Of a stretch of DNA of 64,000 nucleotides, positions 17,622 to 40,945 are shown in pieces. Made by a program: the position numbers and the translations under genes. The notes beneath the pieces were generated by a model. The model did no database searches. It had not been told where the DNA came from and worked only from the letters and a program-made list of their open reading frames with translations. The DNA comes from an uncultured Ectothiorhodospiraceae bacterium. Lineage in GTDB: Bacteria; Pseudomonadota; Gammaproteobacteria; SZUA-152. The stretch's first letter is position 1; every line of letters starts with the position of its first letter. Location of the stretch: NCBI GenBank assembly GCA_964401355.1, contig CAYNYJ010000002.1:6116-70115 (forward strand), given 5' to 3'.

Positions 17622-19289
<1,668 letters not shown>

Positions 19290-19342
19290 GCTGCGCTCCA
19301 TCTGAGCTTGATACTGTTGTTAACGGTGAATCGTTAGCAACC

Positions 19343-21255: not shown

Positions 21256-21664
21256 GCCGTTGCGGGAAACCGCAGTGATTGCCACTATCCATATTAAATG
21301 TTTGAGTTTTGCTGGTTAGCAGACGCTCCCCCCTCTTTACTATTTGCCCCTTCTTGCCCGGTGACGTCTATGGCAAGTGGTGGTTGCGACAGTTATCATT
21401 ATTGTATATAATTTAATCAGATTCAATGAGAAGGGTCGTAAGCAGTGTCGAAAATCTGACGCCTCGAATCGTGCACCCTAAGATCAAAATCGTACAGTTG
21501 ATGACGTATTGAACAACCGTGCAGGCGATGTGACCGCAGAATTTAATTTCTCTCTCAGTGAGGTTGACTGAAAATACTATCAGCAAGGGCGTTGGCCATG
21601 GGCTTATTCAGAGCCGTGGTGAGTGTGACTTTTTAATCCAGGTATTTTTGGTGCTGTGAGCGTC

Positions 21665-21781
21665 ATGCGCCGCTCGGTTATTAGCTCTTATGTCGACGGT
21701 ATCTCTGCGGGCTTTGCTGCGATAAATTTTTCTACCGGTGGCGTTGCCAACGGAGCTTCTGTCCTGGTCTGTGAAACGTAA
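21665..21781 (+). CDS. Candidate small peptide (38 aa: MRRSVISSYVDGISAGFAAINFSTGGVANGASVLVCET), a possible scaffold/precursor peptide for the downstream island
   Basis: ORF hand-translated from sequence. It lies about 180 bp upstream of the pqqD-like gene, has a Gly/Ala/Ser-rich C-terminal half ending in Cys-Glu-Thr, and only a weak ribosome-binding site. Confidence 0.2.
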   Translation: MRRSVISSYVDGISAGFAAINFSTGGVANGASVLVCET

Positions 21782-21882
21782 TGCCGTGTTTTTAAATGTT
21801 TGTATGTGTCGTGTCTGCGGTGCTCAACAGAGAAAAATCATATTGATATCCTCTTTTTTCAGCGAAAAATAGCGGGACAGTG

Positions 21883-21933
21883 ATGTTTAAATTCTTGCTG
21901 TCATATGGATGCCATATAAAAGTACAAAACTAA
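21883..21933 (+). CDS. Candidate micro-ORF (16 aa: MFKFLLSYGCHIKVQN) immediately upstream of the pqqD-like gene
   Basis: Hand-translated. It ends 30 nt before the PqqD-like start. By position it is analogous to pqqA in pqqA-D operons, but it lacks the PqqA E-x3-Y motif. Confidence 0.15.
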   Translation: MFKFLLSYGCHIKVQN

Positions 21934-21962
21934 ACGACTAAATATTTAAGGAGTATTGAACC

Positions 21963-22259
21963 ATGGAAGTCAATGCCAACACGGCTATTAACAATTTGCC
22001 AATGCAAGCGGCATTTTTGGATAATCGTTATTTGCAACATTTAGCCATTAGTGACAACGGTTTTGTCTTTGATCCCACCACAGGCCAAAGTTTTACCATG
22101 AATGAGATTGGCGTTGAATTGCTTCGCTTGTTTCAACAAGAAAGCAATATCGACACCATTGTGAGCTTGCAATATAAAAAATATAAAGTCGATACACAGG
22201 AAATTGAACGAGACATCGTGGAATTTGCCAGTAGTCTCAATCGACATTTTTATCGATGA
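21963..22259 (+). CDS. PqqD-family protein (RiPP recognition element / peptide chaperone)
   Basis: TMNEIGVELLRLFQQESNIDTIVSLQ...ERDIVEFASSL aligns with Klebsiella PqqD (LNETAAAILELVDGRRDVAAIIAEL...DDDVVEFLQ). The product is 98 aa with a strong AAGGAG ribosome-binding site. Confidence 0.7.
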   Translation: MEVNANTAINNLPMQAAFLDNRYLQHLAISDNGFVFDPTTGQSFTMNEIGVELLRLFQQESNIDTIVSLQYKKYKVDTQEIERDIVEFASSLNRHFYR

Positions 22260-23320
22260 GCAGCGTATTAACGATGAACATAACTGTTGCTATAACGGGG
22301 ATGAATTCTCAACCCGACAACCCCGGGCCTGGGTTGGCTGTTGCCCGGTGTTTAAAGGAGTCTGCGGAATTTAACGGTCGAATTATCGGTCTGGGTTACG
22401 ATGCGTTGGATGCAGGAATTTACCATAGCGAATACTGTGACGCAGGTTATTTATTACCTTACCCATCCAGCGAAAGCTTTGAACATGTTGACCGATTGCA
22501 ATCAATTCACGAAAAGGAACACATTGACGTATTGATTCCCTGTCTGGATTCGGAGATGCCCGGGATGATTCGTTTGCTTCCCTTGTTTGAAAAGATGGGG
22601 ATAAAAACCTGCCTGCCAACGTTGGAACAGCTGACAATGCGTAATAAAAATCGCTTGTCGGAATTGCTTGGCGACGGAGAAATGTCCTATCCCGAATCAA
22701 TTGATATCATCAATGTTGAATTTTTTCAAGGCTGTGAAAAGCAGGGTTGGACATATCCGTTTGTCGTAAAGGGCGTATTTTACGACGCAAAAATTGTTCA
22801 TAACATTGCGCAGGGTATTGCCGCATTTAACGCAATTTCTACTCAATGGGGTTTTCCGATAATTGTTCAGAAGCTCGTGCGTGGGCAGGAATACAACGTC
22901 GTCGCATTAGGTAATGGAGAAGGTGGCCTGGCGGGTATGGTTATGATGAAAAAAATGATACTGACCGAAAAAGGAAAGGCCAGTGCTGGAGTCAGTGTTT
23001 ATGATGAAGGCCTGCATCGGGTCTGCCTTGAAGTCATGAAAACACTGCGTTGGAAAGGGCCGATAGAATTCGAAGTGATGCGTGACAAACTTGGTAAGTA
23101 TCACCTTATCGAGATTAATCCCAGATTTCCGGCTTGGGTATATTTAACTGCTGGGGTGGGACAAAACCTCCCCATCAAATTGTTGAAGCTTATAGCCGGT
23201 GAGTCTATATCTGAGCTTCCTTCAACAAAAGCTGGGGTTTTGTTTATTCGGCACGCAATGGATTTAATAGTGACGATTGCCTCATTTGAGGCGGTCGCTA
23301 TTGAAGGTGGAACATCATAG
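22256..23320 (+). CDS. ATP-grasp family ligase
   Basis: YHLIEINPRFPAWVY is the ATP-grasp Mg/ATP motif (compare IEVNPR). PFVVKGVFYDAKIV is a central-domain lysine motif. The start overlaps the pqqD-like stop (ATGA). Confidence 0.7.
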   Translation: MSSVLTMNITVAITGMNSQPDNPGPGLAVARCLKESAEFNGRIIGLGYDALDAGIYHSEYCDAGYLLPYPSSESFEHVDRLQSIHEKEHIDVLIPCLDSEMPGMIRLLPLFEKMGIKTCLPTLEQLTMRNKNRLSELLGDGEMSYPESIDIINVEFFQGCEKQGWTYPFVVKGVFYDAKIVHNIAQGIAAFNAISTQWGFPIIVQKLVRGQEYNVVALGNGEGGLAGMVMMKKMILTEKGKASAGVSVYDEGLHRVCLEVMKTLRWKGPIEFEVMRDKLGKYHLIEINPRFPAWVYLTAGVGQNLPIKLLKLIAGESISELPSTKAGVLFIRHAMDLIVTIASFEAVAIEGGTS

Positions 23321-23417
23321 TCGTCGTTTTCGTTCTATTTGTCAGTTTGATGCCCGAATCCAGCGAGTTTCGTTAGAGAAAGAAGAATTTAATATTTTAT
23401 TTTTATAGGTGTGTTTA

Positions 23418-24902
23418 ATGAAAAATAATATTTCGCAACAAGAAGGGCAAGGCCAGGCAGAAATCACTTGGAGTAAGCCATCAATACTTCCATTGAAAGA
23501 TGGGACTATTAATAAGTTTGGTTCCAGGCCGTATGCAGAGACGCAGAGCGAGGTCGATGGTGTTGTCATCAATGATCTAATTGAAAAATATGGTTCGCCG
23601 CTTTTCGTCATTTCCGAAAAGAAGCAGCGTGATAATGCGCGCCGAATTCAGCGAGCATTCAGTTCGCGTTATCCCCATGTCCAATTCGGTTGGTCCTACA
23701 AAACAAATTACCTGGATGCTGTCTGTAATGTTTTTCATCAGGAAGGATTGTGGGCAGAAGTTGTTTCTGAATTTGAATACCAAAAAGCAAGAAATCTAGG
23801 GGTTCCCGGGCATAAAATAATCTTTAATGGTCCACATAAATCCAGGGGGATTCTGGAACAGGCCATTGAAGAAGGTGCGCTCATTCATATTGATCATCTG
23901 GATGAACTATTTCTTATCGACACGATTTCAGCTGAAAAGAAAAAAATGGTTTCCGTTGCTATTCGTCTCAATTTCGATACGGGTTATACCGAAAATTGGG
24001 GTCGCTTCGGATTCAATATTGAATCGGGCCAAGCCTTTGATGCCGCAGTGCATATTTCGAATAGCCAACACCTTGAACTGGTTGGGCTGCATAGCCATAT
24101 TGGCACGTTCATTACTGATGGTCGTGCCTATGTCAGTCAAATTAAAATAATGTGCAAGTTTATGGATGAAGTGGAATTAAAAACAAATTGTTCCATTGAT
24201 TACATTGATATTGGCGGGGGCTTGGCTTCGATGAATTCTCTGCAAGGAGCTTATTTACCGCCAGAACAATATATTCCCAGTATTGAACAATATGCGACGT
24301 TAATTTGTGATGCCTTGTTAAAGGAGACGCGGTCACGCAATGCAAATAAAGATAAAGGTTTGTTGTTGATACTGGAAACAGGCCGGGCAATGATTGATGA
24401 TGCTGAAGTATTGATAACTTCCGTCGTTGCCAATAAGCAATTGCCGGATGGTCGTCGTGCTTCAATTATGGATGCTGGTTTAAACCTGTTATTTACCAGT
24501 TTTTGGTATGACCATAAGATAGTGCCGACCCGGGAATTGCCGGGAGTGGCAGAAGAAACCGTGCTTTATGGGCCGCTGTGCATGAACATCGATGTGGTGA
24601 GAAAAAGCATTAAATTGCCACCGATGAAAATAGGAGAGCCCATGGTGATCAAACAGGTCGGTGCTTATAACAATACACAATGGATGCAATTTATTGAATA
24701 TCGTCCGAATGTAGTCATGGTTCATGAAGATAAATCTGTGTCGATTGTCAGAGAGGCCGAAAATTTGCAAACAATGATTGCACAGGATCGGTTACCGGCT
24801 CATTTATCTGACCCTTTCGTAGAGGTTTCCAAAGGTAAGGCAGCGCTTGTCGCTGAGGCGACGTTGACGGAAGTTGTTTTGGTTGAGTCCAATTCTACGT
24901 AA
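23418..24902 (+). CDS. PLP-dependent decarboxylase, Orn/DAP/Arg decarboxylase family (fold type III, diaminopimelate-decarboxylase-like)
   Basis: SPLFVISEKKQRDNARRIQRAF...QFGWSYKTNYLDAVCNVFHQEGLWAEVVSEFEYQKA...IIFNGPHKS contains the PLP-lysine region and the conserved Gly-rich PLP-phosphate-binding motif IDIGGGL. Confidence 0.75.
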   Translation: MKNNISQQEGQGQAEITWSKPSILPLKDGTINKFGSRPYAETQSEVDGVVINDLIEKYGSPLFVISEKKQRDNARRIQRAFSSRYPHVQFGWSYKTNYLDAVCNVFHQEGLWAEVVSEFEYQKARNLGVPGHKIIFNGPHKSRGILEQAIEEGALIHIDHLDELFLIDTISAEKKKMVSVAIRLNFDTGYTENWGRFGFNIESGQAFDAAVHISNSQHLELVGLHSHIGTFITDGRAYVSQIKIMCKFMDEVELKTNCSIDYIDIGGGLASMNSLQGAYLPPEQYIPSIEQYATLICDALLKETRSRNANKDKGLLLILETGRAMIDDAEVLITSVVANKQLPDGRRASIMDAGLNLLFTSFWYDHKIVPTRELPGVAEETVLYGPLCMNIDVVRKSIKLPPMKIGEPMVIKQVGAYNNTQWMQFIEYRPNVVMVHEDKSVSIVREAENLQTMIAQDRLPAHLSDPFVEVSKGKAALVAEATLTEVVLVESNST

Positions 24903-27111
24903 ACCAGGGGCTGTTCCATTGCTAAAGACGAACTGGTGTCATTTTAAGGATATTGCCAAAGCTTATTCCGGCATTTTATTTTTGGAGCACCCCTTGGTTG
25001 GGGTATTGTTCATTGCACTGACTTTTTGGTCGCCGTTAACGGGTATGGCTGGACTGTTGTGCGCGCTGACAAGTATGTTGATATGTGTATTTTTAAAGCT
25101 GCCCCATATTGGTAGCAAAGCACATATTCTGAATAGTGTGTTGACGGGCTTATCACTGGGTGCCTTGTTTCAACTCAGTGGCCAGGCTTGGGCGTTTGTT
25201 ATTGTTGGCGGATTACTCACGACATTTTTGTCTATTCTGATGGCTGATATATTGTGGCGTCGAACAGGGCTGCCAGCCGTGTGTCTTCCCTTTATTGTGA
25301 GTGCTGCAATATTATCCCTGGTGGTCCGGGAATATGTACCGAGCACCGACTTTAGCGCGATTGGCTGGTTGACTGATGTCTGGATTCATCCCTGGGTGGA
25401 TTTATTTTTTAGAACCTTGTCCGCAACCCTATTTTCACCAAATCCTGTGATTGGGTTATTGGTGTTCATCGCTATCATTATTCAATCCCGTTACCTGGGG
25501 TTGCTAGCGATTGCTGGTTTTTCGTTGGGACTTTTTTTACTTAATATACTGTCTGGCAGTCATCCGACAGAATTTTATGTGTGGACGTGTTTTAACTTTG
25601 TTCTTACCGCATTGGCCGTGGGTGGAATTTATACTGTGCCTGATCGGAGCAGTTTTATTTATGCCATGTTTGGCGTATCGGTATCGGTATTCTTTGTTAT
25701 CGTGATACAAGATTTGATGCTGGTATATCATTTACCGGTCATGGCATTACCTTTTGTGGCCGCAACTTTATTGTGCATTGCTGTGCTTCAAAGACGTAGC
25801 AGTATGGAATCGCCGTGGTTGTGTGCCACTCCGGGGCTGCCGGAAAATGATTATGAGCAAAGACGCTTGGCGCGTACGCGATGTGGCGAACCTAACAGCA
25901 TCCCCTTGCTGTTACCTTTTTACGGCACCTGGAATGTGTATCAGGGTTTTGATGGCCGCCACACTCATAAGACGCCCTGGAATCATGCCGTTGATTTTTA
26001 CATTACTGAAAAAGGCTTAAGTTATTGTGCTCAAGGCTTTCGACTTGAGGATTACTATTGTTTTGGATTACCGATTATATCGCCGGTCTATGGTGAAGTG
26101 ATAGCAACCGCGGATTCGGTGTCTGACAATATTCCAGGCGCAGTTAACGTGGATGATAATTGGGGTAATTTTATCCTTATTTATTTGAGCACCGGGCATT
26201 GCATTATGTTGGCGCATCTCAAGCATTTAAGTATTAAAGTTAATGTGGGTGATCAGGTGACACCAAAAACGGAGTTGGCCGCTTGTGGTAATTCGGGGCG
26301 CTCACCGCAACCCCATTTACATATTCATTTGCAGAAAGATGCAGAGATTGGAAGTCCGACACAGTTATTCCACTTTTGCAGTGTTCTGGAAAATGTGGGG
26401 ATACAAAATACACACTATAAGCTGATCAGCAGACCCGTGGATAACGTCAATATTCAGGCCGCAGCTCATGCTCGGGGGTTGTCCAATATTCACCAACACC
26501 TCCCCGTGGGTCGCTATTTCACTTACAAGCTAATAGATCCGGAGACCAACGCCAGCAGCGTACGTCGCCTATTGGTGGAGGTGACGTTAATGGGCCAGTT
26601 CCGTTTGGTAAGTGACTCTGGTGCCAGTTCCGCTTTTGAGGAAGTCAATGGTGTACTTGCCTTTTATGACAGGCAAGGTCCAGCAGATCAATTATTGGAT
26701 ATGTTGTTACTGTCCTATGGTTTGACGCCATTAACAGAACTTGCGCAACAATGGCAGGATTCACCGTCGGTAAAATTGTTGCCGTTGCAGAGTGGGGAAA
26801 AAATATTGCTGGCATTCCGTTTCATTTTGGGTGTTGGGCTTGAGAGCCAATATCAGCGTCAGTGGGATTCTGCAAAGAATATGTGGGTACAACGCAGTAC
26901 TCATACATTGCGAATTGGCCCGCGTACTTTGGTGGCCGAAGCCGTTATAGAATTGGACCGGGCATTTGTCAGTAATGATATGACGTTGTCATTTAACGGT
27001 TGCACCTGGCGTGCACAATTATTGAATAATGGTTTAATAAAAGATCATGGTATACCGGGCTGGCGTAAACAGCATGTTGATGACGCTAGCTCAAACTTGT
27101 CGACGGTTTAG
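24874..27111 (+). CDS. Fusion protein: N-terminal urea-transporter (UT)-like polytopic membrane domain + C-terminal M23 (LytM/lysostaphin-type) metallopeptidase-like domain
   Basis: N-terminal YSGILFLEHPLVGVLFIALTFWSPLTGMAGLLCALTSML follows the UT-family pattern, and there are about 10 predicted TM helices. C-terminal WNHAVDF ... GNSGRSPQPHLHIHL matches the M23 HxxxD / HxH zinc-ligand motifs. Confidence 0.6.
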   Translation: MFWLSPILRKPGAVPLLKTNWCHFKDIAKAYSGILFLEHPLVGVLFIALTFWSPLTGMAGLLCALTSMLICVFLKLPHIGSKAHILNSVLTGLSLGALFQLSGQAWAFVIVGGLLTTFLSILMADILWRRTGLPAVCLPFIVSAAILSLVVREYVPSTDFSAIGWLTDVWIHPWVDLFFRTLSATLFSPNPVIGLLVFIAIIIQSRYLGLLAIAGFSLGLFLLNILSGSHPTEFYVWTCFNFVLTALAVGGIYTVPDRSSFIYAMFGVSVSVFFVIVIQDLMLVYHLPVMALPFVAATLLCIAVLQRRSSMESPWLCATPGLPENDYEQRRLARTRCGEPNSIPLLLPFYGTWNVYQGFDGRHTHKTPWNHAVDFYITEKGLSYCAQGFRLEDYYCFGLPIISPVYGEVIATADSVSDNIPGAVNVDDNWGNFILIYLSTGHCIMLAHLKHLSIKVNVGDQVTPKTELAACGNSGRSPQPHLHIHLQKDAEIGSPTQLFHFCSVLENVGIQNTHYKLISRPVDNVNIQAAAHARGLSNIHQHLPVGRYFTYKLIDPETNASSVRRLLVEVTLMGQFRLVSDSGASSAFEEVNGVLAFYDRQGPADQLLDMLLLSYGLTPLTELAQQWQDSPSVKLLPLQSGEKILLAFRFILGVGLESQYQRQWDSAKNMWVQRSTHTLRIGPRTLVAEAVIELDRAFVSNDMTLSFNGCTWRAQLLNNGLIKDHGIPGWRKQHVDDASSNLSTV

Positions 27112-27144
27112 CGATTGAACGGTTTATTTTTCTGAACAATAAAA

Positions 27145-28524
27145 ATGGAATTGGAGTTCATGTTTTACCCATCGATGACTATAAAAATGTACTGGTCCAT
27201 TTCTTCAGTCGGGTTTACGATAGCGTTATTGTTGCTCACAGTTAATCCAGCTCTGGCAATGGACATAGAAGAGATTTATGAACTGGCGCTGGAAACCGAC
27301 CATGTGATTCGGAAGGCAACAGCGATTCGTGCCGGTTCGCAAGAAGCTGTTCAGCAAAGCAGAGCCAGATTCTGGCCGAAAATGTCCGCCAGTACCCTTT
27401 ATACGCAAAACTCACAAGATCGCACTGTGCATGATTTTACCAATACCGTGCTTCTAAATAGTAAGCCTGAGTTTGCCAGTAGCGGCTACAGCATAAACAT
27501 TACCCAGCCCCTGTTTGATTACGATGCGATTGTTAATAATCAACAAGCGTGGGCGACACATGAATTGGCAGATGTTCAATACAATGAAACGGGTCATTTC
27601 CTGGTGCTGCGGGTTATTACCGCTTACATGGGGGTATTGTCTGCCAAACAAGGAATTCACTATCGCGAACTGGAAGTACAGGCGCTAAAAAAACAACTTG
27701 AGCGAATGGAGTACCGCTTGAATTTGGGTATTAGCGCAAAAATTGATGTCAGTGAGGCACAGGCTGGGTATGACCAGGCGTTGGCGAATCGCACCAGTGC
27801 CAGCATCCGTCTGTCTATTACCAATGAAGCCTTACGTCAAATTACGGGTCAGTTGCACGATAATCTTGATCCGCTCCAAGTTGCAGCATCTTTCAATATG
27901 CCAAATCCCAGTAATCTGACTTTTTGGATTAAAATGGCACATGAAAATAATTATCAACTTCAAATTGCACAATCCCAGCTTAAGCTGGCACAGATCGGGA
28001 TTAAAAAACAGGGTGCCTCACGTTTTCCTTATCTTTCACTGATAGCCACGTATAATTATTACAATAATCTGGCATTAGACTACGCTGGCGTTGAATTGGA
28101 AACGGGTTCCATTACGGCACGTTTGGATTGGGATTTCTATCAAGGCGGGTTGGTCAGTTCCCGCATTCGTCAAGCGAAATATTATAAAGATCAGGTTGAT
28201 ATTTCTCTGCAACAGCAGAAAAGTCTGGTGGAGCGACAAGTCCGTGATGCGTATTACATCCTGGTGGGTGGAGTGAATCGTATCGGTGAGTTGGAACAAT
28301 CCATAAAATCGCAAAAAGTGCTGTTGGAAGCAAACAAGGCTGGCTATGAAACGGGAGCCAGAACCAGTTTTGATGTTTTGAATGCGCGGACAAATCTATA
28401 CACTTTACGGAGAAAGCTGGCGCAAGCTCGACATGACCATGTATTACATCATGCTATTTTGAAATACCGCGCAGGCATGCTTGTGGTTGAGGACTTGGCA
28501 TACATCAACCAAAGCTTGGAATAG
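27145..28524 (+). CDS. TolC-family outer-membrane efflux channel
   Basis: N-terminal signal peptide, two repeated alpha-helical coiled-coil/beta-barrel halves of TolC/OMF topology, and a C-terminal YRAGMLVVEDL characteristic of outer-membrane factors. Confidence 0.7.
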   Translation: MELEFMFYPSMTIKMYWSISSVGFTIALLLLTVNPALAMDIEEIYELALETDHVIRKATAIRAGSQEAVQQSRARFWPKMSASTLYTQNSQDRTVHDFTNTVLLNSKPEFASSGYSINITQPLFDYDAIVNNQQAWATHELADVQYNETGHFLVLRVITAYMGVLSAKQGIHYRELEVQALKKQLERMEYRLNLGISAKIDVSEAQAGYDQALANRTSASIRLSITNEALRQITGQLHDNLDPLQVAASFNMPNPSNLTFWIKMAHENNYQLQIAQSQLKLAQIGIKKQGASRFPYLSLIATYNYYNNLALDYAGVELETGSITARLDWDFYQGGLVSSRIRQAKYYKDQVDISLQQQKSLVERQVRDAYYILVGGVNRIGELEQSIKSQKVLLEANKAGYETGARTSFDVLNARTNLYTLRRKLAQARHDHVLHHAILKYRAGMLVVEDLAYINQSLE

Positions 28525-28671
28525 GGTGCTTCAAATTTAGCCAATATTTCCCTGTGGTCTTGTTCGTGTTGGCGCGGCACGGCGAATTCATGACTCAGTT
28601 TCGGTCTGTTCGAAGACAGCAGGGGCTAATAACAGAAGGGTAGTCAATTCTCGGGTACTACATGACAGCGA

Positions 28672-28860
28672 TTAGATTTGTTCAGAAGCCTGCACCAGCC
28701 TGTTTTTTATTGTATTAAAAAGCTGTACGAACACTTTGTCTAGGTGTTCCTTGTTCATATTTTTCGGCTTGGTGTGCCCCCGTTGACGTAAGGCCATTGT
28801 GTTTTTGAGCTTGGAAATGTGACTGGAGTGCAGAGCCCGTTCACCGGAAGAAAAATACAC
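28672..28860 (-). CDS. Small basic hypothetical protein (62 aa)
   Basis: ORF only; Lys/His-rich. Confidence 0.25.
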   Translation of the reverse strand: MYFSSGERALHSSHISKLKNTMALRQRGHTKPKNMNKEHLDKVFVQLFNTIKNRLVQASEQI

Positions 28861-29341
28861 AGAAATATTTCTTGAGGCATGACGGGCTAGCGAGTTGCGC
28901 GAGTCTTTTTTCAGGATTTTATTATCTATATCCGGGGCTATTCAAGGAATTAAGTCGCTGCAAATACGCTAATTTTGGTGTCTTCGTGGGGAAACTGATT
29001 TATTGCCTGCTTGCTGAAAATAGCGCGGGAAACGGCTGCCGTGGATTCGTGCGGTATACCAAAATGAGGGGCTGCGCGGAGTATAATTGGGTTAACGTTG
29101 AGTTTAAAATCGGTTGTTCAAAAACAGGCATTCCAAAAAAAACAAGAAAGGAACCCTATAAAACTGCTGATAGAGTTCCTTTCCATCTTTTTTACGTGGG
29201 GTTTTAAGCCACATAGGTGTAAAGCTACATGCGAAAAGCAGAATGTAGGTTACACAGGCGTTGCTTTCGCAACAACATCCGTTACCAGATGCAGACTACA
29301 CGAGTGTGTAGCAGTATAGTTTGTTTAGCTTGAGAGTCGGC

Positions 29342-29491
29342 TTACATGCCGCCGCCCATGCCTCCAGCGCCCATACCGGCACCCATGCCGCCGCCCATGC
29401 CGCCGCCCATGCCGCCCATACCCATTCCGCCCATGCCGCCTCTGCCACCCATGCCGCCTCGACCACCACCCATTCCACCCATTCCACCCAT
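29342..29491 (-). CDS. Gly/Met-repeat peptide (49 aa: [49 protein letters not shown]; 59 aa if the upstream ATG at 29521 is used)
   Basis: Hand-translated on the minus strand; it is missing from the ORF track because it is under 60 aa. A strong GGAGG Shine-Dalgarno sits 8 nt upstream of the internal ATG. The peptide is composed almost exclusively of (G)GM repeats. Confidence 0.5.
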   Translation of the reverse strand: MGGMGGMGGGRGGMGGRGGMGGMGMGGMGGGMGGGMGAGMGAGGMGGGM

Positions 29492-30103
29492 GATAGAACC
29501 TCCAAAGTAGTTGTATTGCATTTACATGGTTGGCCAACGTCATGTACAGGATGCCCAGTATTTTGATGCTGACTAAAATACCGTGGTATCAACAGTACGT
29601 GCAGTTAGCACGAAATCAAGCAGAAACAACTCTGGTTGATCCCATTGTCTGCCACAACTGCGGCGGACAACGTCGAAAAAAGTAACAGAGTGATCATTTA
29701 TTGTCAATTTAAAGGATGGAGGTCAGCAGTGAAAATAAGGGTTGTAACTTATTGATTTTTAAAGATGATAAGAATTTTTCTTTGTAGATATCGCTGATGA
29801 TACTGAGTTAAATAGCAATATTACGCATAAGAAATAGTCTGTATAGGTAATTTATTACCGCAAACATGTTTTTTGGTAATTAATAACAATATATTGTAAG
29901 CGTTAATGTTCGCATGTCTGGCGAGTATTTCAGAAAAAGTGATTTATGCATCAACCGGGTGCATTGTGATGTGATTGATGCGGACATTTTTGCAAGCCCG
30001 TGTTATGTGCTTGTTTTATGACATAATCGTTTCGCCGATGTGTTTGTTAACGGACGCTTAACGGTGGCATTGAGCCAAAAAAATAAAAAAAGGATTTTGT
30101 CAT

Positions 30104-33100
30104 ATGTTTATGCTTGCGGCCGCATTTTTACTCTTGTCAGGTATTGCCAGTCTGACTTATCAGGTGGTTTGGGTCAGGTTGCTAGGACTGAGTATGGGGT
30201 CGACCAGCGCTTCGATCAGTACCGTGTTAGCGGCGTTCTTTTTGGGCTTGGCTCTGGGGAGTTACCTGGCTGAGCGTATAACCCGAAATCGTATCAATGA
30301 TCTCAGAGCGTATATTGTGCTGGAACTGATCATTGGTCTGTCGGGTCTGGCCTTGCTTCCCATTTTGTTGAATCTCGATGCAATCATGGCGGCTACCCCG
30401 GCGTTGGGTGCAACCATTCCCATGAAATTTGCGGTGACCACCGTGTTGTTGCTGATTCCCACGGTGTGCATGGGGGCCACTTTCCCTGTTATGGCATCGT
30501 TGCTCATTCGTCGTAAAGATGAAGTGGGTGTCCGTGTCAGCCAACTTTATAGTTTAAACACGGCAGGTGCGGTACTGGGGGCGGCTCTGGCGGGTTTCTT
30601 TTTTGTGCCGAACTGGGGTTTGGATGGCGCGGTTTATATTGCCTTTTCGTTTAATTTATTGATTGTAGTACTGGCTATTTATCTCAACCAAAAAATTTCC
30701 TTGCCGCCAATCGAAGTGTCGACGGTTGAAGCCAAATCGGCTGGTGCTGCTGTCTCAAACTCAATAACGGAAGAAGCCCCTTTGCGTGGACGGGCGCTGA
30801 TAGTGTTGTTTGCCACTGGCCTTGTTGCCATCGCAACGGAAGTCGGCTGGACCAAGTACCTGTCGATTTTTACGGGAACCACTATTTATGGTTTTGCCGC
30901 GATACTGACGATATTTCTCACGGGTATCGCTGCAGGTTCATGGGCGATTAAATCATATATTGAGCGTATGCAACGGCCAGAATTGTGGATGGCCTTCGGG
31001 CTGGTATTGTTGGGTAGCTCGTTATTGTTGACGCGCGCGGGTTTGACCTGGGTCCCCGCCATTTATCAAGCAATGAACCATTTCCCGGTAGAGCCATGGT
31101 TGAAGCACGGGGTGAAATACACTTTTGTGTTTGTGTTGCTGTTTCCTCCGACGTTTTTGTTTGGTGCATTGTTTCCAATAAATCTGAGGCTTTACTGCGG
31201 CAATTTGCAGGGTATACGGGCACGTATTGGCAAGGCTTATGCGGTGAATACGGTCGCCAGTATTTTTGGTTCGATTATGGCGGGTTTTTGGTTGATCCCA
31301 TATTACGGCACCGATGTGTTGCTAACGGTTATGGCGCTGGTGTTATTGGTATTGCCGTTGTTGTTTGTGCCGGTGCTAACGACACCTGTGGCGAAGCTGT
31401 CGATTACCGCATTCGCAGTTCTGGCGCTGTTGAGCAGTGGGTTGTTACCGCATCTGAGTTACAAGGATATGATCACTTCGGTGCAATATGACGGTGAGTC
31501 TTATGCTGGCCAAGAACCCAAATTTTTGTTTTTGAAGGAGGGTAAGGCGGGCGTCATTAGTATGATCACTTATAACGACCGGCACGTGAGGCTGCAAAAC
31601 AATGGTCTGAATGAATCTTTCATTGATCTTGAAGATGAAAATAATGTGTTACTGGTTGAAAGCTTGTTGGGTCTGCTGCCGTACATGCTGCATGACGATC
31701 CCAAGTCGGCTTTTGTGGTGGGTTTTGGGGGTGGCATTACCACCAAAGCATTGACCTTTACAAAATTGGAATCCATTCGTGTGGTCGAGCTGGAACCGGC
31801 GGTGATCGACGCTGGGCGAGCGATCATCGGTGGCCGAGAAATTCTTGCGTTGCAAGACCCGCGAGTGACGCTCACGCTGAATGATGCGCGTAATACCTTG
31901 TTAACCGAAAGCACAAAATACGACATTATTGCCTCGCAGCCTTCACACCCTTGGCTGGCGCGTGCGTCGAATATCTTTACCAAAAACTTTTTTGAGCTGG
32001 TTAAGTCACGGCTCAATGACGGCGGTATTTACGGTCAGTGGGTGAATTTGTTTCATATGGATGCTACTACTCTGAAATCACTGTTACGCGCTTTCTACGA
32101 AGTGTTTCCGCATGGCATGACCTTCGCCAATCTTGAGAGTGGAGATTTCATGATGTATGGCTCTGTTTCGCCGATAATTTTTGATTTTGCAAAAATTGAA
32201 CAACGTTTGAATGAACCCAAAATAAAGACGGCACTGAATTATCACGGTATTTATTATGCCCGGGATTTAATGTGGTACTTTGCGCTCTCGCGTGATCAGG
32301 CGTTGGCGGCATCGATGGATGTGCCGGCTAACACCGATACCAATATTCTTTCTGAAGTACGGTTGTCGGCTATTGATAATAAACCGTCGCCCGAAGAAAG
32401 CCCTTATAAATTCTTAATCGATAATTACACCTTTAATGTGCGCCCTTACTTTGCTACGGATGAGGCTGCGGATCGTATTTACCAGTTGGGTACCTATTTT
32501 CTGGTTGAGAAGAATGAGCAGGACATTGCGCAGTATTCGGCGGATCAATTAAAAGAAATTGATCCGGTCAAGGCGCGTGGCATTGAATATGAAAAACATT
32601 GGCATAATTTTGAATATGATGAAACGGATGCATTGTATATACAGCATGAACAGTGGCCGGATCGCACTCACATGCAACAGGCTTTGGCATTGGTGGATCG
32701 GAATCGTTATGACGAGGCCACGGCCGTGCTACCCCGTGTGGAAGTGGAAGGAATGCGTCGTATTCTGGCAGCACGGCTGTTATTTGATCAGCAGCGTTTT
32801 GATGAGCTTGTGGCCGTGGATACACAATATGATGCCGAAAAACTCTGGCGTTTGTCGGCCTTGGCGAGAAAGGATTTGATCACTGCGGGCAGTGAACTGC
32901 ATGCGTTGGTGCAGCGAGTTTCACCCGGGCTTCCGCAGCTGCGGGTTTTGGCGGGATACTACGGGGTGATTAATGACGATAAACAACTGGACCGGGTGGC
33001 GCGTTTGATTGTTCAGCAGCAAAACAAAGAAATTGAGCGTATTCAGCAGTTATTGACTGATGCAATAGAGGCTGAGCAAGTGCAGTATTCACAAAATTTG

Positions 33101-33268
33101 CTCAAGCGTATTGAGATGCTTAACCCGGAAGAGAACTACAAACTGAAAGAATTGCGAGGCAAAGTCGCGAAGCTTGTTGTTTCTCCGATCCAGGAAAATG
33201 ATACCGGCGATCAAGAGGTCACGATAAATAACGGTGAAAAGCACACGCTCTCACTATACTCAAGTTAG
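30104..33268 (+). CDS. Fused polytopic membrane domain + spermidine-synthase-like (SpeE-fold aminopropyltransferase/methyltransferase-like) domain + C-terminal helical repeat region
   Basis: The N-terminal half (about 460 aa) has many TM helices. VVGFGGGITTKAL...IRVVELEPAVIDAGR...YDIIASQPSHPWLARASNIFTKNFFELVKSRLNDGGIYGQWVNL is a spermidine-synthase-like Rossmann core. The product is 1054 aa. Confidence 0.65.
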   Translation: MFMLAAAFLLLSGIASLTYQVVWVRLLGLSMGSTSASISTVLAAFFLGLALGSYLAERITRNRINDLRAYIVLELIIGLSGLALLPILLNLDAIMAATPALGATIPMKFAVTTVLLLIPTVCMGATFPVMASLLIRRKDEVGVRVSQLYSLNTAGAVLGAALAGFFFVPNWGLDGAVYIAFSFNLLIVVLAIYLNQKISLPPIEVSTVEAKSAGAAVSNSITEEAPLRGRALIVLFATGLVAIATEVGWTKYLSIFTGTTIYGFAAILTIFLTGIAAGSWAIKSYIERMQRPELWMAFGLVLLGSSLLLTRAGLTWVPAIYQAMNHFPVEPWLKHGVKYTFVFVLLFPPTFLFGALFPINLRLYCGNLQGIRARIGKAYAVNTVASIFGSIMAGFWLIPYYGTDVLLTVMALVLLVLPLLFVPVLTTPVAKLSITAFAVLALLSSGLLPHLSYKDMITSVQYDGESYAGQEPKFLFLKEGKAGVISMITYNDRHVRLQNNGLNESFIDLEDENNVLLVESLLGLLPYMLHDDPKSAFVVGFGGGITTKALTFTKLESIRVVELEPAVIDAGRAIIGGREILALQDPRVTLTLNDARNTLLTESTKYDIIASQPSHPWLARASNIFTKNFFELVKSRLNDGGIYGQWVNLFHMDATTLKSLLRAFYEVFPHGMTFANLESGDFMMYGSVSPIIFDFAKIEQRLNEPKIKTALNYHGIYYARDLMWYFALSRDQALAASMDVPANTDTNILSEVRLSAIDNKPSPEESPYKFLIDNYTFNVRPYFATDEAADRIYQLGTYFLVEKNEQDIAQYSADQLKEIDPVKARGIEYEKHWHNFEYDETDALYIQHEQWPDRTHMQQALALVDRNRYDEATAVLPRVEVEGMRRILAARLLFDQQRFDELVAVDTQYDAEKLWRLSALARKDLITAGSELHALVQRVSPGLPQLRVLAGYYGVINDDKQLDRVARLIVQQQNKEIERIQQLLTDAIEAEQVQYSQNLLKRIEMLNPEENYKLKELRGKVAKLVVSPIQENDTGDQEVTINNGEKHTLSLYSS

Positions 33269-34580: not shown

Positions 34581-35201
34581 ATGGGAGTGAAGAACCGTTT
34601 AATCAATCCGAAAGCACGACGTCGAGGCTTGCTGGGTGTCGCTGGGGCTGGGCTTATGTGTCTGGCAATGTTGCTGATGTCGTCAGTGGCGATGGCAGTT
34701 AAATATGATGTGGTGCCGCCGGTCGGAACGCATCAGGGGGAGGATGTGCCTCAGCCCATCGAGTTTCCTCATAATGTTCACGTTAAAGATAATGACATTA
34801 ACTGCATGTACTGCCATACCTATGCGCGACGCAGCGCAGTGGCCGGTATTCCTCCGACCAGTAAATGCATGGGCTGCCACAAGGTGATTGCGACAGACAA
34901 GCCGCGCATCCAGAAGCTCACCAAATACTGGCAGGACAAAATATCACCCGCTTGGAAGAAAGTGCACGACCTGCCGGACTTTGTGCATTTTACCCACGAG
35001 AAACATTTGAAGACCTTGGTGTTTGATCGGGAGTTTCCGGTTGAAGATGTGAAGGAAGTTTGTGCCTTTTGTCACGGTGATGTGGAAAATATGACGGTAG
35101 CGCACAAAGTGAAACCGTTGAATATGGGCTTTTGCGTTAATTGCCATATTGCGAACAAAGAACTGGGTGCCCCGGGCGACTGCTGGAAGTGCCACAAGTA
35201 A
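34581..35201 (+). CDS. actA: Alternative Complex III subunit ActA (pentaheme cytochrome c)
   Basis: Five CXXCH motifs (CMYCH, CMGCH, CAFCH, CVNCH, CWKCH) in 206 aa with an N-terminal signal anchor. It is the first gene of the act operon. Confidence 0.8.
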   Translation: MGVKNRLINPKARRRGLLGVAGAGLMCLAMLLMSSVAMAVKYDVVPPVGTHQGEDVPQPIEFPHNVHVKDNDINCMYCHTYARRSAVAGIPPTSKCMGCHKVIATDKPRIQKLTKYWQDKISPAWKKVHDLPDFVHFTHEKHLKTLVFDREFPVEDVKEVCAFCHGDVENMTVAHKVKPLNMGFCVNCHIANKELGAPGDCWKCHK

Positions 35202-35264
35202 TCGTCGCGCAAATACAAAGGTGTTAACGATGAGCAAGCGAATTAATAGAGTGGAATTACGACT

Positions 35265-37481
35265 ATGAGCGGAAAGATAAACCGTAGAAGTTTCCTGAAG
35301 GTGATGGGCTGGAGTGGTGCGGGCGCGGCATTAAGCGGTTGCGATTTGCCCTCCACGGTCACGTTGGAAGAGGGTAAGGAGGACGTCGTTTCTTACCTGA
35401 TGCCTGAGGAGTATGTGATCCCAGGTGTTGGTGTGTGGTATGCCTCGACCTGTACACAATGTGAGGCGCGCTGTGGTATTCATGGTCGTGTCCGCGAAGG
35501 TCGTGTACTGAAACTGGAAGGCAATCCTGATGCGGCGGTCAATAACGGCAAGCTCTGCATGATGGGCCAGGCCGGCATTCAGGGTCACTACAACCCGGAT
35601 CGTATTACCACGCCCATGTTGCGCAACGGGGGCAGTTTGGCTCCTGTGAGCTGGGACAGGGCGATGGCGGTTTTGGAAGAAAAGCTGGGTACCCTAAGTG
35701 GCGACCGTTTTGCGTGGTTCACTGGTTCTATGAGTGGTCATCAATCGGTGCTGATCTCCAATCATCTGGAGGCTATGGGTTCCACAAAACATTTTGTGCA
35801 TGAAGTGCTGAACAGCGCGGTGTCGCAAGCGGTGAATCGCGATATGCTCGGTGAGGCAACACCGCGGTTGCGTTTAGACAAGGCCAAGATGATCCTTTCT
35901 TTTGGCTCGGACTTTATGGGTGCCAGTCAATCAACGGTGCAATACGCAGGTCAGTATGCGAAGTTCCGGACCAATAAAGAGCGTGGCGTATTCGTTCAGA
36001 TCGAATCCAAGATGTCGCTCACCGGCGGTAACGCAGATTTATGGCTGGCTATCAAACCGGGCACTGAAGGGGTGTTGGCACTGGGTATCGCCAATTTGCT
36101 GTTGAATCAGCTGAAGCTCAGCGATGCGGGTATCCCTGAGGATGTGCGCACCATGATCGACGGATATGGCATTAGCAAAGTTGCCGAGATCACTAGCGTG
36201 GCAGGTGACCGCATTCAGCGTGTGGCAAAATTGTTGATGCAGCGTTCTCCCAGTTTGGTGCTGGCCGGGCCCTCGGTGGAAGGCCATGCTCATGGTTACG
36301 CTGCTACCGCAGCGGTGATGCTGCTGAATCATATCTTGGGTAATGTGGGTAAAACTATCGAGTCTGCGGGCGATTTCCCCTTCCCTCAGTTGATGGCAAA
36401 GCAAGGTGGCACAGCAGATCTGGTGGCATTTGCCGCTGATGCGAAAGCGCAAAAGTTGGATGCGGTCATTTTCTACGGTAGCAACCCGGTTTATTCCGCG
36501 CCGCAAAGTTTGGGCTTGACGGAAGCACTGTCCAATATTGGCTTCAAGGTTGCAATTTCACAATTTCCGGATGAGACCACAATGGCGGCCGATTTGGTGC
36601 TGCCGGTTGATTCCTACCTCGAAGACTGGGGGACACAGGTACCGGTTCATCAGGCAGAGTCCGCAGCGATTCATGTGCAGCAACCATTGATGGAGAGGCT
36701 CCATGAGCAGACCAAGGGCTTAGGTGACATTCTGTTGTCACTGCTCAAACAGCGCAAAAAAGATGACTACGCACAGTTTGAAGATTATTACGCGTACTTG
36801 CGCAACGCCTTTGCCGCGATGCCGGCGGGTGTGAAAAAGAATGCGCAAAACAACAACGAGTTCTGGAATGCCGCGCTGCAGACAGGCGTGATAGAAATCC
36901 AGTCAGGCGCCAAGAGTCTGCAATCAACAGTGGTTTCATTTGCCGCACCGGTGACAGGAAGTGATTCCGGTGGTTTGACGCTGGTACCATCGGCGCGTTT
37001 GGGCTTGTTTGATGGGCGTCATGCAAACTTGCCATGGTTGCAGGAAGCACCGGATCAAATCAGTAAGGTGGTGTGGGATTCCTGGGCTGAAATGCACCCG
37101 GCTACTGCCGCCAAAATGGGCATCAGTAATTTAGAACTGATCCGTGTTGATTCAGAGCACGGCAGTGTTGAATTGCGTGTTGTGCTGCTCAAGGGTGTAC
37201 ATCGTGATGCCATTGCTATCCCGCTGGGCCAGGGGCATGAGGTCTACGGTCGGTATGCAAAGGGCTTGGGTGTGAATCCGTTGAAAATTTTAAATGCGAC
37301 CGTTGACAGTAAAACGGGCGAATTAGCCATGTACAGCACACAAGTCACGGTAAAACGTATTGGCGAAGCAGATTCATTATCGATTGTGCGTATGGGAACC
37401 GGTAGCGGTGACAGTCAAGCAGGGCGCAAGTTGGTGGCGACCGTGTCAGTTGAGCAGGTTCAACGTACGGAGGGAACATAG
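35265..37481 (+). CDS. actB: Alternative Complex III subunit ActB1 (molybdopterin-oxidoreductase-like domain, Tat-exported)
   Basis: Twin-arginine signal RRSFLKVMGWSGAGAALSGC and a complex-iron-sulfur-molybdoenzyme fold including CTQCEARCG. The product is 738 aa. Confidence 0.8.
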   Translation: MSGKINRRSFLKVMGWSGAGAALSGCDLPSTVTLEEGKEDVVSYLMPEEYVIPGVGVWYASTCTQCEARCGIHGRVREGRVLKLEGNPDAAVNNGKLCMMGQAGIQGHYNPDRITTPMLRNGGSLAPVSWDRAMAVLEEKLGTLSGDRFAWFTGSMSGHQSVLISNHLEAMGSTKHFVHEVLNSAVSQAVNRDMLGEATPRLRLDKAKMILSFGSDFMGASQSTVQYAGQYAKFRTNKERGVFVQIESKMSLTGGNADLWLAIKPGTEGVLALGIANLLLNQLKLSDAGIPEDVRTMIDGYGISKVAEITSVAGDRIQRVAKLLMQRSPSLVLAGPSVEGHAHGYAATAAVMLLNHILGNVGKTIESAGDFPFPQLMAKQGGTADLVAFAADAKAQKLDAVIFYGSNPVYSAPQSLGLTEALSNIGFKVAISQFPDETTMAADLVLPVDSYLEDWGTQVPVHQAESAAIHVQQPLMERLHEQTKGLGDILLSLLKQRKKDDYAQFEDYYAYLRNAFAAMPAGVKKNAQNNNEFWNAALQTGVIEIQSGAKSLQSTVVSFAAPVTGSDSGGLTLVPSARLGLFDGRHANLPWLQEAPDQISKVVWDSWAEMHPATAAKMGISNLELIRVDSEHGSVELRVVLLKGVHRDAIAIPLGQGHEVYGRYAKGLGVNPLKILNATVDSKTGELAMYSTQVTVKRIGEADSLSIVRMGTGSGDSQAGRKLVATVSVEQVQRTEGT

Positions 37482-37483
37482 TT

Positions 37484-38326: not shown

Positions 38327-38395
38327 GGCTTTTTATCTCTCGATTTCACGTTCGGTTACAACCAGAGCCGTCAAAAAGATTAAGGTGATATAACA

Positions 38396-40907: not shown

Positions 40908-40945
40908 CTGACATGACAAGAAAAGATAAAAGGGGTAACGGGTAA

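Follow-up and report, generated by a model that had tools for sequence, protein, structure and literature searches.

Four genes of the window, the 64,000-nt stretch of DNA analysed here, form a conserved operon that is widespread and uncharacterised. They encode a PqqD-family (RRE) protein, an ATP-grasp ligase, a PLP decarboxylase and an inner-membrane protein in which a urea-transporter (UT) fold is joined to an M23 metallopeptidase and a beta-cup domain. Our tentative reading, drawn by analogy and given slightly less than an even chance, is that the operon is a self-contained, horizontally mobile unit that moves between phyla as a whole and serves the biosynthesis of a small amide-linked, decarboxylated compound and its export via the urea-channel-like protein fused to a peptidase. 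The features in the window are as follows.

21963..22259, + strand: PqqD-family / RRE protein, 98 aa (Pfam PF05402)
22256..23320, + strand: ATP-grasp ligase, 354 aa, its start overlapping the PqqD stop (ATGA)
23418..24902, + strand: alanine-racemase-fold (fold-type III) PLP decarboxylase, 494 aa, of an FslC/FigC-like clade (PF02784, PF00278)
23469..23522, + strand: leader-like motif in the N-terminal extension of the decarboxylase, residues 18-35 (W-x-K-P-x-I ... G ... N-K-F-G)
24919..27111, + strand: inner-membrane fusion protein UT + M23 + beta-cup, ~730 aa from TTG 24919
27145..28524, + strand: TolC-family outer-membrane channel (TIGR01844)
21256..30103, no strand: low-G+C island containing the cassette (G+C, GC3)

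The first three genes had been described in a first-pass annotation of this DNA as a translationally coupled triad. All three ORFs lie where they had been placed, with PqqD, ATP-grasp and fold-type-III PLP decarboxylase genes at 21963-24902. The coupling is seen in the sequence as an ATGA overlap of ATG (22256-22258) with TGA (22257-22259). That annotation had closed the unit at 24902, which is too early. It overlooked the fourth core gene, UT-M23 (24919-27111), and those for the outer membrane. Four genes make up the conserved unit, which reaches 27111; an outer-membrane component brings the count to five or six, and with TolC the end is at 28524. With these additions the picture shifts from an enzyme triad towards a biosynthesis-plus-export machine.

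Gene order was compared at 82 loci, 80 of them from species-representative genomes and the other two from Congregibacter and the contig of the window itself. A PqqD gene matching the family profile lies directly 5' of the ATP-grasp gene at every one of them, its ORF ending 0-48 nt ahead of the first conserved ATP-grasp residue (82/82). The decarboxylase is next in order at all 67 loci with enough sequence, and the UT-M23 gene follows it at each of the 62 loci long enough to show the order. This arrangement is kept across at least eight phyla. The association of these genes is far beyond chance.

The operon was found in at least 571 species-representative genomes. It is spread over hundreds of Gram-negative species, with iron oxidisers, methanotrophs, Accumulibacter, Ignavibacteria, Myxococcota and Melainabacteria among the hosts, and its distribution is sporadic and accessory. 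The cassette has a G+C content of 0.44 (GC3 0.39-0.46), compared to 0.51-0.53 (GC3 0.58-0.66) in the flanks. Interphylum transfer as a unit, a low-G+C island and the lack of a cis-encoded precursor suggest that the substrates should be common metabolites or the operon's own proteins. An ABC transporter encoded upstream and an MFS/spermidine synthase encoded downstream were rejected as parts of the system, neither being conserved at other loci. A riboswitch or RNA element was also rejected, the Rfam match being a chance-level group I intron alone; promoter-like and terminator-like sites were at the level of shuffled sequence.

The triad had been placed outside PQQ synthesis and outside any characterised pathway, and both claims are borne out. 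The genes called in the 10 kb to each side include no pqqA, pqqB, pqqC or radical-SAM pqqE, no pqq family occurs among the co-conserved ORF clusters of the 82 loci, and the triad never adjoins pqqABCE. In the literature no paper on this gene combination was found, nor any curated family describing the operon. The stalk-formation (sfz) cluster of iron oxidisers was considered as its identity and rejected, since its genes, sfz1-6, are of BcsB-like and glycosyltransferase type, and PqqD, ATP-grasp and a decarboxylase go unmentioned in the paper on it.

The 98-aa protein scores 43.5 bits against Pfam PqqD (PF05402; cutoff 23.4, E 4e-11), so that the PqqD/RRE assignment passed the HMM check proposed for it. 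The PqqD subfamilies in NCBIfam all remain below cutoff, including the PqqD of PQQ synthesis (TIGR03859, 19.3 vs 46). The family has a core, LAxSDxGFVFDPxTGxSFxxNExG, and a variable C-terminus and N-terminal ~23 aa. In the LysW/LysX system a small protein is likewise paired with an ATP-grasp enzyme, and substrates are borne by LysW at a conserved, acidic C-terminal tail. The C-terminal residues of the window family differ (L, K, A, S, R and others) and show no acidic motif. PqqD was rejected as a LysW-like carrier because its C-terminus is not conserved.

The first-pass annotation had further proposed that PqqD binds a short ribosomal peptide on which a RiPP or scaffolded product is built. In such a pathway the peptide, encoded elsewhere or too short or variable to detect, would receive an amino acid from the ATP-grasp enzyme, the decarboxylase would trim that residue, and M23 would cut off the leader or free the modified residue before export. 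Its basis, a genuine and coupled triad outside known pathways, stands, but a conserved short carrier or precursor gene in or near the operon was found by neither of two methods at 81 loci. In its favour, all characterised PF05402 proteins to our knowledge bind peptides, and in the operon an RRE occurs at every locus, coupled to the ligase; the export channel itself carries an intact peptidase domain, and TolC or OMP components are present. The 21-22-aa scaffold peptides of the fosfazinomycin cluster were long overlooked (PMC13622209). No conserved short ORF (of at least 10-12 aa) was seen upstream of PqqD, however, and no short-ORF family crosses phyla; none of the small ORFs in the window is conserved. 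Short ORFs with [YWF]xxPx[LIVMF] show no positional enrichment anywhere in the 81 loci. The 707-bp gap upstream of PqqD lacks nucleotide conservation even in relatives of 75% identity, and many loci have a neighbouring gene so close to PqqD that no room is left for a precursor gene there. A precursor peptide 5' of PqqD was rejected on these grounds. Transfer of the cassette between phyla without its substrate gene would also be hard to explain, the ATP-grasp enzyme is structurally further from peptide-modifying ligases, and the UT pore is narrow. Taken together, we regard a peptide-based pathway as unlikely, although far from negligible.

RRE-dependent RiPP systems (PqqD/PqqE, lasso B1 proteins, StsC) and scaffold-peptide pathways (TglA/pearlins, fosfazinomycin FzmZ) share with the operon a discrete PF05402 domain of ~90-100 aa and a W/YxxP-type recognition sequence (PMC12710340, PMC13622209). 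The window operon, in contrast, lacks a precursor gene, and its conserved gene set includes none of the maturases that define a class (rSAM, YcaO, lasso cyclase, LanB/C, MNIO). Its recognition-like motif is on the decarboxylase enzyme and not on a short peptide.

Structural comparison of the ATP-grasp model places it nearest to small-molecule ligases, namely PylC and the L-amino-acid ligases (BL00235, BacD, RizA), with peptide-modifying ligases further off. Sequence similarity to them is marginal, the PylC-like_N match being below cutoff. We know of no RRE partner working with PylC, BL00235, BacD or RizA. The enzyme is not of the graspetide MdnC/PsnB/CdnC type, nor is it close to RimK or cyanophycin-type enzymes.

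The decarboxylase matches Orn_Arg_deC_N (104.8 bits) and Orn_DAP_Arg_deC (46.6 bits) in Pfam. Translation from ATG 23418 (494 aa, AGGTG 8 nt upstream) is likelier than from GTG 23409. Its best match is the FslC profile NF041039 (232.5 bits, cutoff 500), to which it is not an equivalog, and it is also below the LysA cutoff (TIGR01048, 210.4 vs 297.9). The closest solved relative is the N-citrylornithine decarboxylase FslC/FigC (PDB 7kh2, 201.5 bits). The segments SYKTN (with the PLP-binding Lys), HSHIGT, DIGGGL, ETGRA and GPLCMNID align with FslC and LysA motifs. The PLP Lys, His stack, Gly loop and catalytic Cys are present and conserved in 69 homologues, and the motifs NW(G/S)RFGF and C-M-x-x-D are common to the decarboxylase and FslC/FigC. 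In the substrate loop the window enzyme has C-M-N-I-D vs C-E-S-S-D in the aligned M. jannaschii LysA. Enzymes of the FslC/FigC clade act on amino acids conjugated via the side chain, FslC itself on side-chain-acylated ornithine (PMC7857480).

The Francisella rhizoferrin pathway (FslA/FigA with FslC/FigC) is thus similar to the window operon in having the closest solved decarboxylase relative, with all PLP and catalytic motifs in common. In that pathway the side-chain amine of a diamino acid is acylated first and the conjugate decarboxylated next (PMC7857480). The same order, in which an amide bond is made first and the conjugate then decarboxylated, is proposed for the window operon by analogy, and the ligation-then-decarboxylation logic of the earlier annotation fits this relative. 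The two systems differ in that the rhizoferrin ligase is an NIS synthetase (IucA/IucC type), a family absent from window-type neighbourhoods, which have ATP-grasp instead. The rhizoferrin pathway has neither RRE nor M23 and exports through an MFS protein; the window decarboxylase lies below the FslC family cutoff and carries an extra N-terminal extension of ~35 aa. Butirosin BtrI/BtrJ/BtrK offers another likeness, an ATP-grasp ligase combined with a DAP-decarboxylase-like enzyme, although BtrK is the more distant decarboxylase relative (83 bits). The butirosin decarboxylase acts on glutamate tethered by a thioester to an acyl carrier protein. In contrast, no ACP or further conserved small gene is present in the window operon, and neither a radical-SAM enzyme nor an ACP nor an NIS synthetase accompanies it in the neighbourhoods or the conserved gene set.

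The N-terminal extension of the decarboxylase precedes the start of the FslC and LysA profile alignments. It carries (W/Y)xxPx(I/L), with W/Y, P and I/L/M/V each at its position in 69/69 homologues, and a nearly invariant NKFG. RREs commonly recognise W/YxxP (PMC12710340, PMC13622209), and the recognition sequence in StsA is KPxWxxP (PMC12710340). From these sequence features, the PqqD protein may dock on the decarboxylase itself via the tail motif. Because the same proteins also contain this pattern within their folded cores, the pattern alone is weak evidence for docking, and the tail might act instead as a lid in substrate binding.

The fourth protein consists of UT (~27-304), M23 (~345-495) and LolA/lipovitellin-like beta-cup (~500-730) domains, in the numbering of the 745-aa ORF; the beta-cup is essentially restricted to this fusion. 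A urea-transporter survey published in 2026 (PMC12998343) recorded the UT-then-M23 architecture alone, without operon context, function or the third domain. The fusion has a urea-transporter fold and is annotated as a urea transporter in source databases. On this annotation the operon could be an uptake or nitrogen-metabolism module, in which UT would import urea or a small amide for the cytoplasmic enzymes. The protein scores far under the urea-transporter equivalog cutoff, however (TIGR03441, 74.7 vs 274.6). The UT signature is LPxxTxPF in two copies, each with a conserved Thr, and among 61 homologues the two Thr positions hold S/G/C (46/11/3) and A/V/T/S (30/12/9/9), respectively. No urease or urea carboxylase is linked in the neighbourhoods, and ATP-grasp ligases and RREs are biosynthetic parts. 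The chances of an uptake module therefore appear very slim.

The M23 domain is recognised by its profile and contains HxH and the catalytic His; its His/Asp catalytic candidates are all invariant. The first zinc motif has invariant H365 and D374 with a spacing of H-x8-D vs the canonical HxxxD, and Pfam leaves this segment unaligned; H371 is only H or Y across homologues. There are no transmembrane segments past ~residue 308, and positive charge is found at both termini, from which the M23 and beta-cup domains are predicted to be cytoplasmic. A Gly/Met-repeat ORF of 59 aa (29342-29521, - strand) was rejected as an M23 substrate, as it is not conserved at other loci. M23 enzymes are typically peptidoglycan endopeptidases, and the domain also gives weak matches to MepM, ShyA and DipM. 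These matches, and the relation of the decarboxylase to LysA, would suit recycling or modification of cell-wall peptides, in which M23 would cut meso-DAP stem peptides, the decarboxylase convert DAP, a Ddl-like ATP-grasp enzyme re-ligate and PqqD hold the stem peptide. Such a role is quite improbable, given a decarboxylase under the LysA cutoff and without the C-E-S motif, a predicted cytoplasmic M23 domain, no co-occurring Mur, Mpl or Amp genes in the neighbourhood or conserved ORF clusters, and a sporadic accessory distribution on a low-G+C island.

Outer-membrane components adjoin the core at 43 of 55 loci. In the window this is TolC (TIGR01844, 248 bits; cutoff 225.15), which also lies directly 3' in the close relatives L003 and L004 and in this lineage replaces the OMP + TPR pair of most other loci. 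Other loci, 42 of 55, have an OMP of ~300 aa, a TPR protein of ~210 aa or both. The OMP has no Pfam or PDB match; a Slam-like identity, which would rest on weak TPR_Slam matches, was rejected. A periplasmic TPR protein and outer-membrane barrel after the core in most loci could also point to a secreted amide polymer or matrix. The ATP-grasp enzyme would then polymerise amino-acid-derived units iteratively, like cyanophycin synthetase or RimK, the decarboxylase would supply or trim the monomer, and the inner-membrane protein would trim and thread the chain, with TPR and beta-barrel forming the outer section, an arrangement like that of synthase-dependent exopolymer secretion (AlgK/AlgE, PgaA, BcsC). 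The TPR protein has weak matches to PgaA, BcsC and PEP-CTERM TPR proteins, and the hosts are largely mat- or floc-forming environmental bacteria. Nevertheless, a pore of the UT fold is much too narrow to pass a polymer, the ligase lacks close kinship with the polymerising enzymes, 12/55 loci are without any outer-membrane partner and the window has TolC. We consider a polymer improbable.

Under the biosynthesis-export reading, each chemical step of which is proposed by analogy, the cytoplasmic ATP-grasp enzyme would join a carboxylate to an amine using ATP. The most plausible amine would be the one on the side chain of a diamino acid, the group that PylC uses. The FslC-like decarboxylase would then strip the alpha-carboxyl from the amino-acid part of the conjugate, yielding a terminal amine. 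PqqD, made in fixed ratio with the ligase, would be a docking subunit; its best binding candidate is the (W/Y)xxPx(I/L) tail, which would tie ligase and decarboxylase together, though an unlinked peptide is possible. The UT-M23 protein would take the product at the inner membrane, where the M23 domain, presumably cytoplasmic, would cut an amide bond (release or unmasking) and the beta-cup hold a hydrophobic part. The altered UT-type pore would let the small product out, transport being presumably outward, and passage of the outer membrane would be via TolC in the window or the OMP + TPR pair elsewhere. Against this reading, a passive UT-type pore would be an odd exporter for a cationic amine. 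Were M23 simply to undo the ligation, the net result would be a decarboxylation at the cost of ATP, for which a rationale would be required. It is also unusual for an M23 domain to be cytoplasmic, and the first zinc motif of this one is atypical.

It is possible, though doubtful, that the operon represents a new class of secreted-metabolite system, with an RRE repurposed from presenting substrate peptides to docking enzymes in a ligase-RRE-decarboxylase complex that delivers its product to an undescribed kind of exporter (UT, cytoplasmic M23 and LolA-like cup, with an outer-membrane barrel and TPR protein or TolC). Class-independent RiPP mining relies chiefly on RRE/PqqD domains. It would be misled by a large, conserved orphan RRE family without a precursor, more so if the motif is on a partner enzyme, and RRE docking on an enzyme, if true, would broaden the roles of RREs. 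The operon context gives a testable function to the UT-M23-beta-cup fusion, catalogued only so far. Given its occurrence in at least 571 species-representative genomes, the product could be a secreted amine, amide or peptide of wide ecological occurrence.

Reading frames and domain matches in the window bore out the triad described at 21963–24902 in the first-pass annotation, a PqqD-like protein followed by an ATP-grasp ligase and a PLP decarboxylase. The 98-aa protein belongs to the PqqD family by its Pfam HMM score, and the proposed ATGA overlap is present in the sequence, where the ATG of the ATP-grasp gene (22256–22258) lies on the TGA of the PqqD gene (22257–22259). A fourth gene (24919–27111) and a TolC gene had been left out of that description.

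21963–22259, + strand: PqqD gene, 98 aa (Pfam PqqD, PF05402, 43.5 bits; gathering score 23.4)
22256–23320, + strand: ATP-grasp gene, 354 aa (ATPgrasp_Ter match barely over cutoff)
24919–27111, + strand: fourth gene, a urea-transporter (UT) and Peptidase_M23 fusion, beginning 16 bases past the decarboxylase stop
27145–28524, + strand: TolC-family gene downstream of the fourth gene, above family cutoff

In Pfam, the ATP-grasp ORF also matched ATP-grasp_3 and PylC-like_N more weakly than ATPgrasp_Ter, and the decarboxylase ORF contained two Orn/DAP/Arg decarboxylase family domains (104.8 and 46.6 bits). The likelier decarboxylase start is ATG 23418, which has AGGTG upstream and is also called on the public contig. 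For the fourth gene the best start is TTG 24919, with AGGGG 8 nt upstream, giving 730 aa, as in the closest homologues; Pfam assigned it a UT domain (142.4 bits) and a Peptidase_M23 domain (38.6 bits), with about 250 residues more.

The cassette (G+C 0.44, GC3 0.39–0.46) lies in a low-G+C island (21256–30103), whereas G+C is 0.51–0.54 and GC3 0.58–0.66 in the groEL, ABC-transporter and RND-pump genes that flank it. This composition suggests horizontal acquisition of the island. A 59-aa ORF (29342–29521, − strand) made almost entirely of Gly/Met repeats (MGGMGG...), like the GroEL C-terminal tail, sits in tandem repeats (29345–29491); the window and the matching public JGI contig have tracts of unequal length, and other loci show no conserved counterpart of the ORF next to the cassette. 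The weak group I intron hit at 29643–29861 (+ strand; 20.1 bits, gathering score 50, E 0.13) is probably due to chance. At the island edge, a 1054-aa MFS/spermidine-synthase fusion (30104–33268, + strand; NF037959, 137.6 bits), much extended at its C-terminus, does not adjoin the cassette in other loci. The run at 34581–44993 (+ strand) encodes a multihaem cytochrome, molybdopterin oxidoreductase, 4Fe-4S protein, NrfD and ActD (alternative complex III), then a Rieske protein, cytochrome b and cytochrome c1 (bc1 complex); the cassette therefore sits among housekeeping genes. A 454-aa ORF (17937–19301, − strand) antisense to groEL (17640–19289) is almost certainly a shadow ORF and not a gene. 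Window and JGI contig are just 98% identical in the TolC gene, the rest of the match being 100% identical; the organism is represented in public data by two assemblies or strains that differ slightly.

Searches with the ATP-grasp protein retrieved thousands of relatives, annotated at the fullest as "ATP-grasp domain-containing protein" or "carbamoyl-phosphate synthase large subunit". With one genome scanned for each species, at least 571 loci were confirmed. Hosts among the matches listed include Gammaproteobacteria (Ectothiorhodospiraceae-like MAGs, Halieaceae, Methylococcales, Piscirickettsiaceae), Gallionella, Hydrogenophilales, Rhodocyclales including Accumulibacter, Zetaproteobacteria, Magnetococcales, Rhodospirillaceae, Reyranella, Desulfobulbaceae, Myxococcota, Nitrospirota, Solibacteraceae, Ignavibacteria, Bacteroidota and Obscuribacterales. 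The best 80 of the at least 571 loci were fetched and compared together with those of Congregibacter and the window's own contig, and in every one the genes keep one order on one strand. A PqqD ORF, recognised by family profile, lies directly upstream of the ATP-grasp gene in 82/82, with 0–48 nt from its stop to the first conserved ATP-grasp residue. The decarboxylase comes next in 67/67 and the UT-M23 gene after it in 62/62 loci with enough sequence. Genes upstream of PqqD vary between loci, which puts the start of the operon at PqqD. The conserved gene set of the 82 neighbourhoods contained no pqq genes, radical-SAM enzymes, ACPs or NIS synthetases. Family and literature searches found no curated family and no published description matching the four-gene core.

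Downstream, a candidate outer-membrane protein (OMP) of ~300 aa and/or a secreted TPR protein of ~210 aa is encoded in 42 of the 55 sufficiently long loci. The former has a signal peptide, an aromatic final residue and no match in Pfam or PDB, and we take it to be a putative outer-membrane barrel. In the window and its closest relatives (L003, L004), TolC occupies that place. The core of RRE, ATP-grasp, FslC-like decarboxylase and UT-M23-beta-cup protein, with frequent outer-membrane partners, is strictly syntenic across phyla, with catalytic motifs intact. Polymer secretion is a less likely role. A histidine kinase and/or OmpR-type regulator is added in 19 loci. Three Myxococcota loci (L071 8209–9693, L076 849–2093, L077 8366–9727) have, directly upstream of PqqD, a 414–494-aa TPR protein in place of the short downstream one; it has weak TPR_Slam matches and may be a TPR-barrel fusion. 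In Ignavibacteria (L061, L064, L065, L069, L074, L075, L078–L080), that upstream position is taken by a ~280-aa protein with a type IX secretion C-terminal sorting domain and a FlgD-Ig-like domain, kept in that lineage only. In the Congregibacter variabilis genome alone, a 'thermostable hemolysin' family protein (PF12261; L002 9072–9593) abuts PqqD upstream.

Among the invariant residues of the ATP-grasp protein are those that usually bind ATP and magnesium (K172, E273, E286-x-N288-x-R290). When its predicted model was compared with known structures, the top match was PylC (23.3); the L-amino-acid ligases BL00235, BacD and RizA scored 22.9, 21.3 and 19.0, and PurD, PurK and PurT about 21. Modifiers of carrier proteins or peptides ranked below (LysX/ArgX 16.7, RimK 16.5, PGM1 15.5), and the graspetide ligases CdnC, AMdnB, PsnB and MdnC scored 12.9–13.8. 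Since PylC and the L-amino-acid ligases stand above the carrier and peptide modifiers, the ranking, although suggestive only, favours a ligase of small molecules. The closest characterised model is PylC, an enzyme that attaches the carboxylate of an amino acid to the epsilon-amine of lysine.

The best curated family for the decarboxylase is FslC (232.5 bits), the N-citrylornithine decarboxylase of rhizoferrin synthesis, but the window enzyme is far under its cutoff of 500; LysA is second (210.4 bits, cutoff 297.9). Its nearest solved relative is FslC/FigC (PDB 7kh2, 201.5 bits), against 132 for M. jannaschii LysA and 83 for BtrK. The PLP-binding lysine, stacking histidine, glycine loop, E-x-G-R motif and catalytic cysteine all align. 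In the cysteine loop the window enzyme has C-M-N-I-D where FslC has C-M-Q-H-D and the aligned M. jannaschii LysA C-E-S-S-D; an NW(G/S)RFGF motif is common to the window enzyme and FslC. The FigC paper groups FigC with SbnH, AcsE, MccE and BtrK, all of them decarboxylases of amino acids whose side chain is joined to a larger moiety (PMC7857480). By analogy, a conjugate and not a free amino acid would be the substrate of the window enzyme.

Compared with the FslC and LysA profiles, the decarboxylase has ~35 extra N-terminal residues. The motif (W/Y)-x-(K/R)-P-x-(I/L) is found in this tail in 69/69 full-length homologues, the W or Y, the P and the aliphatic residue each being present in 69/69; the consensus is K-K-(T/P)-W-E-K-P-T-I, with a conserved Gly and an almost unvarying N-K-F-G after it. 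RREs commonly recognise W/YxxP, and K-P-x-W-V-K-P occurs in the StsA leader, which has been validated (PMC12710340). The simplest reading is that PqqD would bind this tail and tether the decarboxylase to the co-translated ligase. The tail could instead be an active-site lid, and the decarboxylase, the ligase and the UT-M23 protein each also have the loose (W/Y)xxPx(I/L) pattern within their folded cores. In ~17 loci (L014 9177–9998, L016 5342–6139 and ~15 more) from Zetaproteobacteria, Magnetococcales, Desulfobulbaceae and some Gammaproteobacteria, PqqD carries a fused N-terminal domain, ~180 aa long, that weakly matches TetR-type HTH proteins (SlmA, FabR). This extension is a probable DNA-binding domain, and it would connect the docking subunit with regulation.

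The first-pass annotation had proposed a short carrier peptide bound by PqqD. The RRE-family protein it called for is present in 82/82 loci, but no conserved peptide gene was found. The 707-bp gap upstream of PqqD showed no nucleotide similarity to close relatives (L003–L005), and in many loci the upstream gene abuts PqqD. For 81 loci, all ORFs of 12–90 aa in the 1.2 kb before PqqD were clustered by short-query BLAST; this gave only lineage-restricted groups of at most five loci each, and the window's own small ORFs had no counterparts in other loci. As the 21–22-aa scaffold peptides of the fosfazinomycin cluster, which carry a YxxP motif, were noticed just recently (PMC13622209), all ORFs of 10–70 aa with [YWF]xxPx[LIVMF] were enumerated; no position was enriched on the operon strand compared with the opposite strand. 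PqqD itself was ruled out as a LysW-like carrier, its C-terminus being unconserved. No precursor travels with the operon; one may be encoded elsewhere. The scaffold-peptide version is the main rival to the scheme proposed below, and we consider it rather improbable.

The predicted model of the fourth protein (pLDDT 83.7, pTM 0.75) has three parts: UT, M23 and a C-terminal beta-cup domain, the last nearly confined to the C-terminus of 700–760-aa proteins of the same architecture (126 representatives at 50% identity). Because H365, D374, H448, H481 and H483 (745-aa ORF numbering) are invariant in 61 homologues, the M23 domain looks catalytically competent, despite a first motif of H-x8-D compared with the canonical HxxxD. 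The urea-transporter signature LPxxTxPF carries a threonine. In the 61 homologues both signature motifs retain L-P and P-F, and the threonine position holds S, G or C in the first and A, V, T or S in the second. With this replacement, and a score well under the urea-transporter equivalog cutoff, the pore is probably not tuned for urea; uptake of urea or an amide is a less likely function. No hydrophobic segment was found after residue ~308, the N-terminus and the juxtamembrane C-terminal stretch are Lys/Arg-rich, and UT termini are cytoplasmic in known structures, from which we infer that the M23 and beta-cup domains lie in the cytoplasm. Cell-wall peptide processing is likewise less likely. 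A 2026 urea-transporter survey catalogued bacterial UT-M23 fusions and did not mention a function (PMC12998343).

We propose, with somewhat less than even confidence, that the ATP-grasp enzyme would carry out an ATP-dependent amide ligation, the decarboxylase would act on the ligated conjugate, the M23 domain would cut an amide bond at the channel mouth, the modified UT pore would let the product out, and TolC or the OMP and TPR pair would pass it onward. Each component is a member of a known superfamily, and the Fsl and Btr systems are precedents for the ligate-then-decarboxylate logic; by membership tests the operon falls outside PQQ, the RiPP classes, graspetides, LysW systems, the butirosin pathway and NIS siderophores. 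This is a widespread, uncharacterised operon with clear limits and open to direct test, and its function is a predicted one. A UT-M23-beta-cup exporter and a possible enzyme-docking RRE, doubtful as they are at present, would be new if confirmed.
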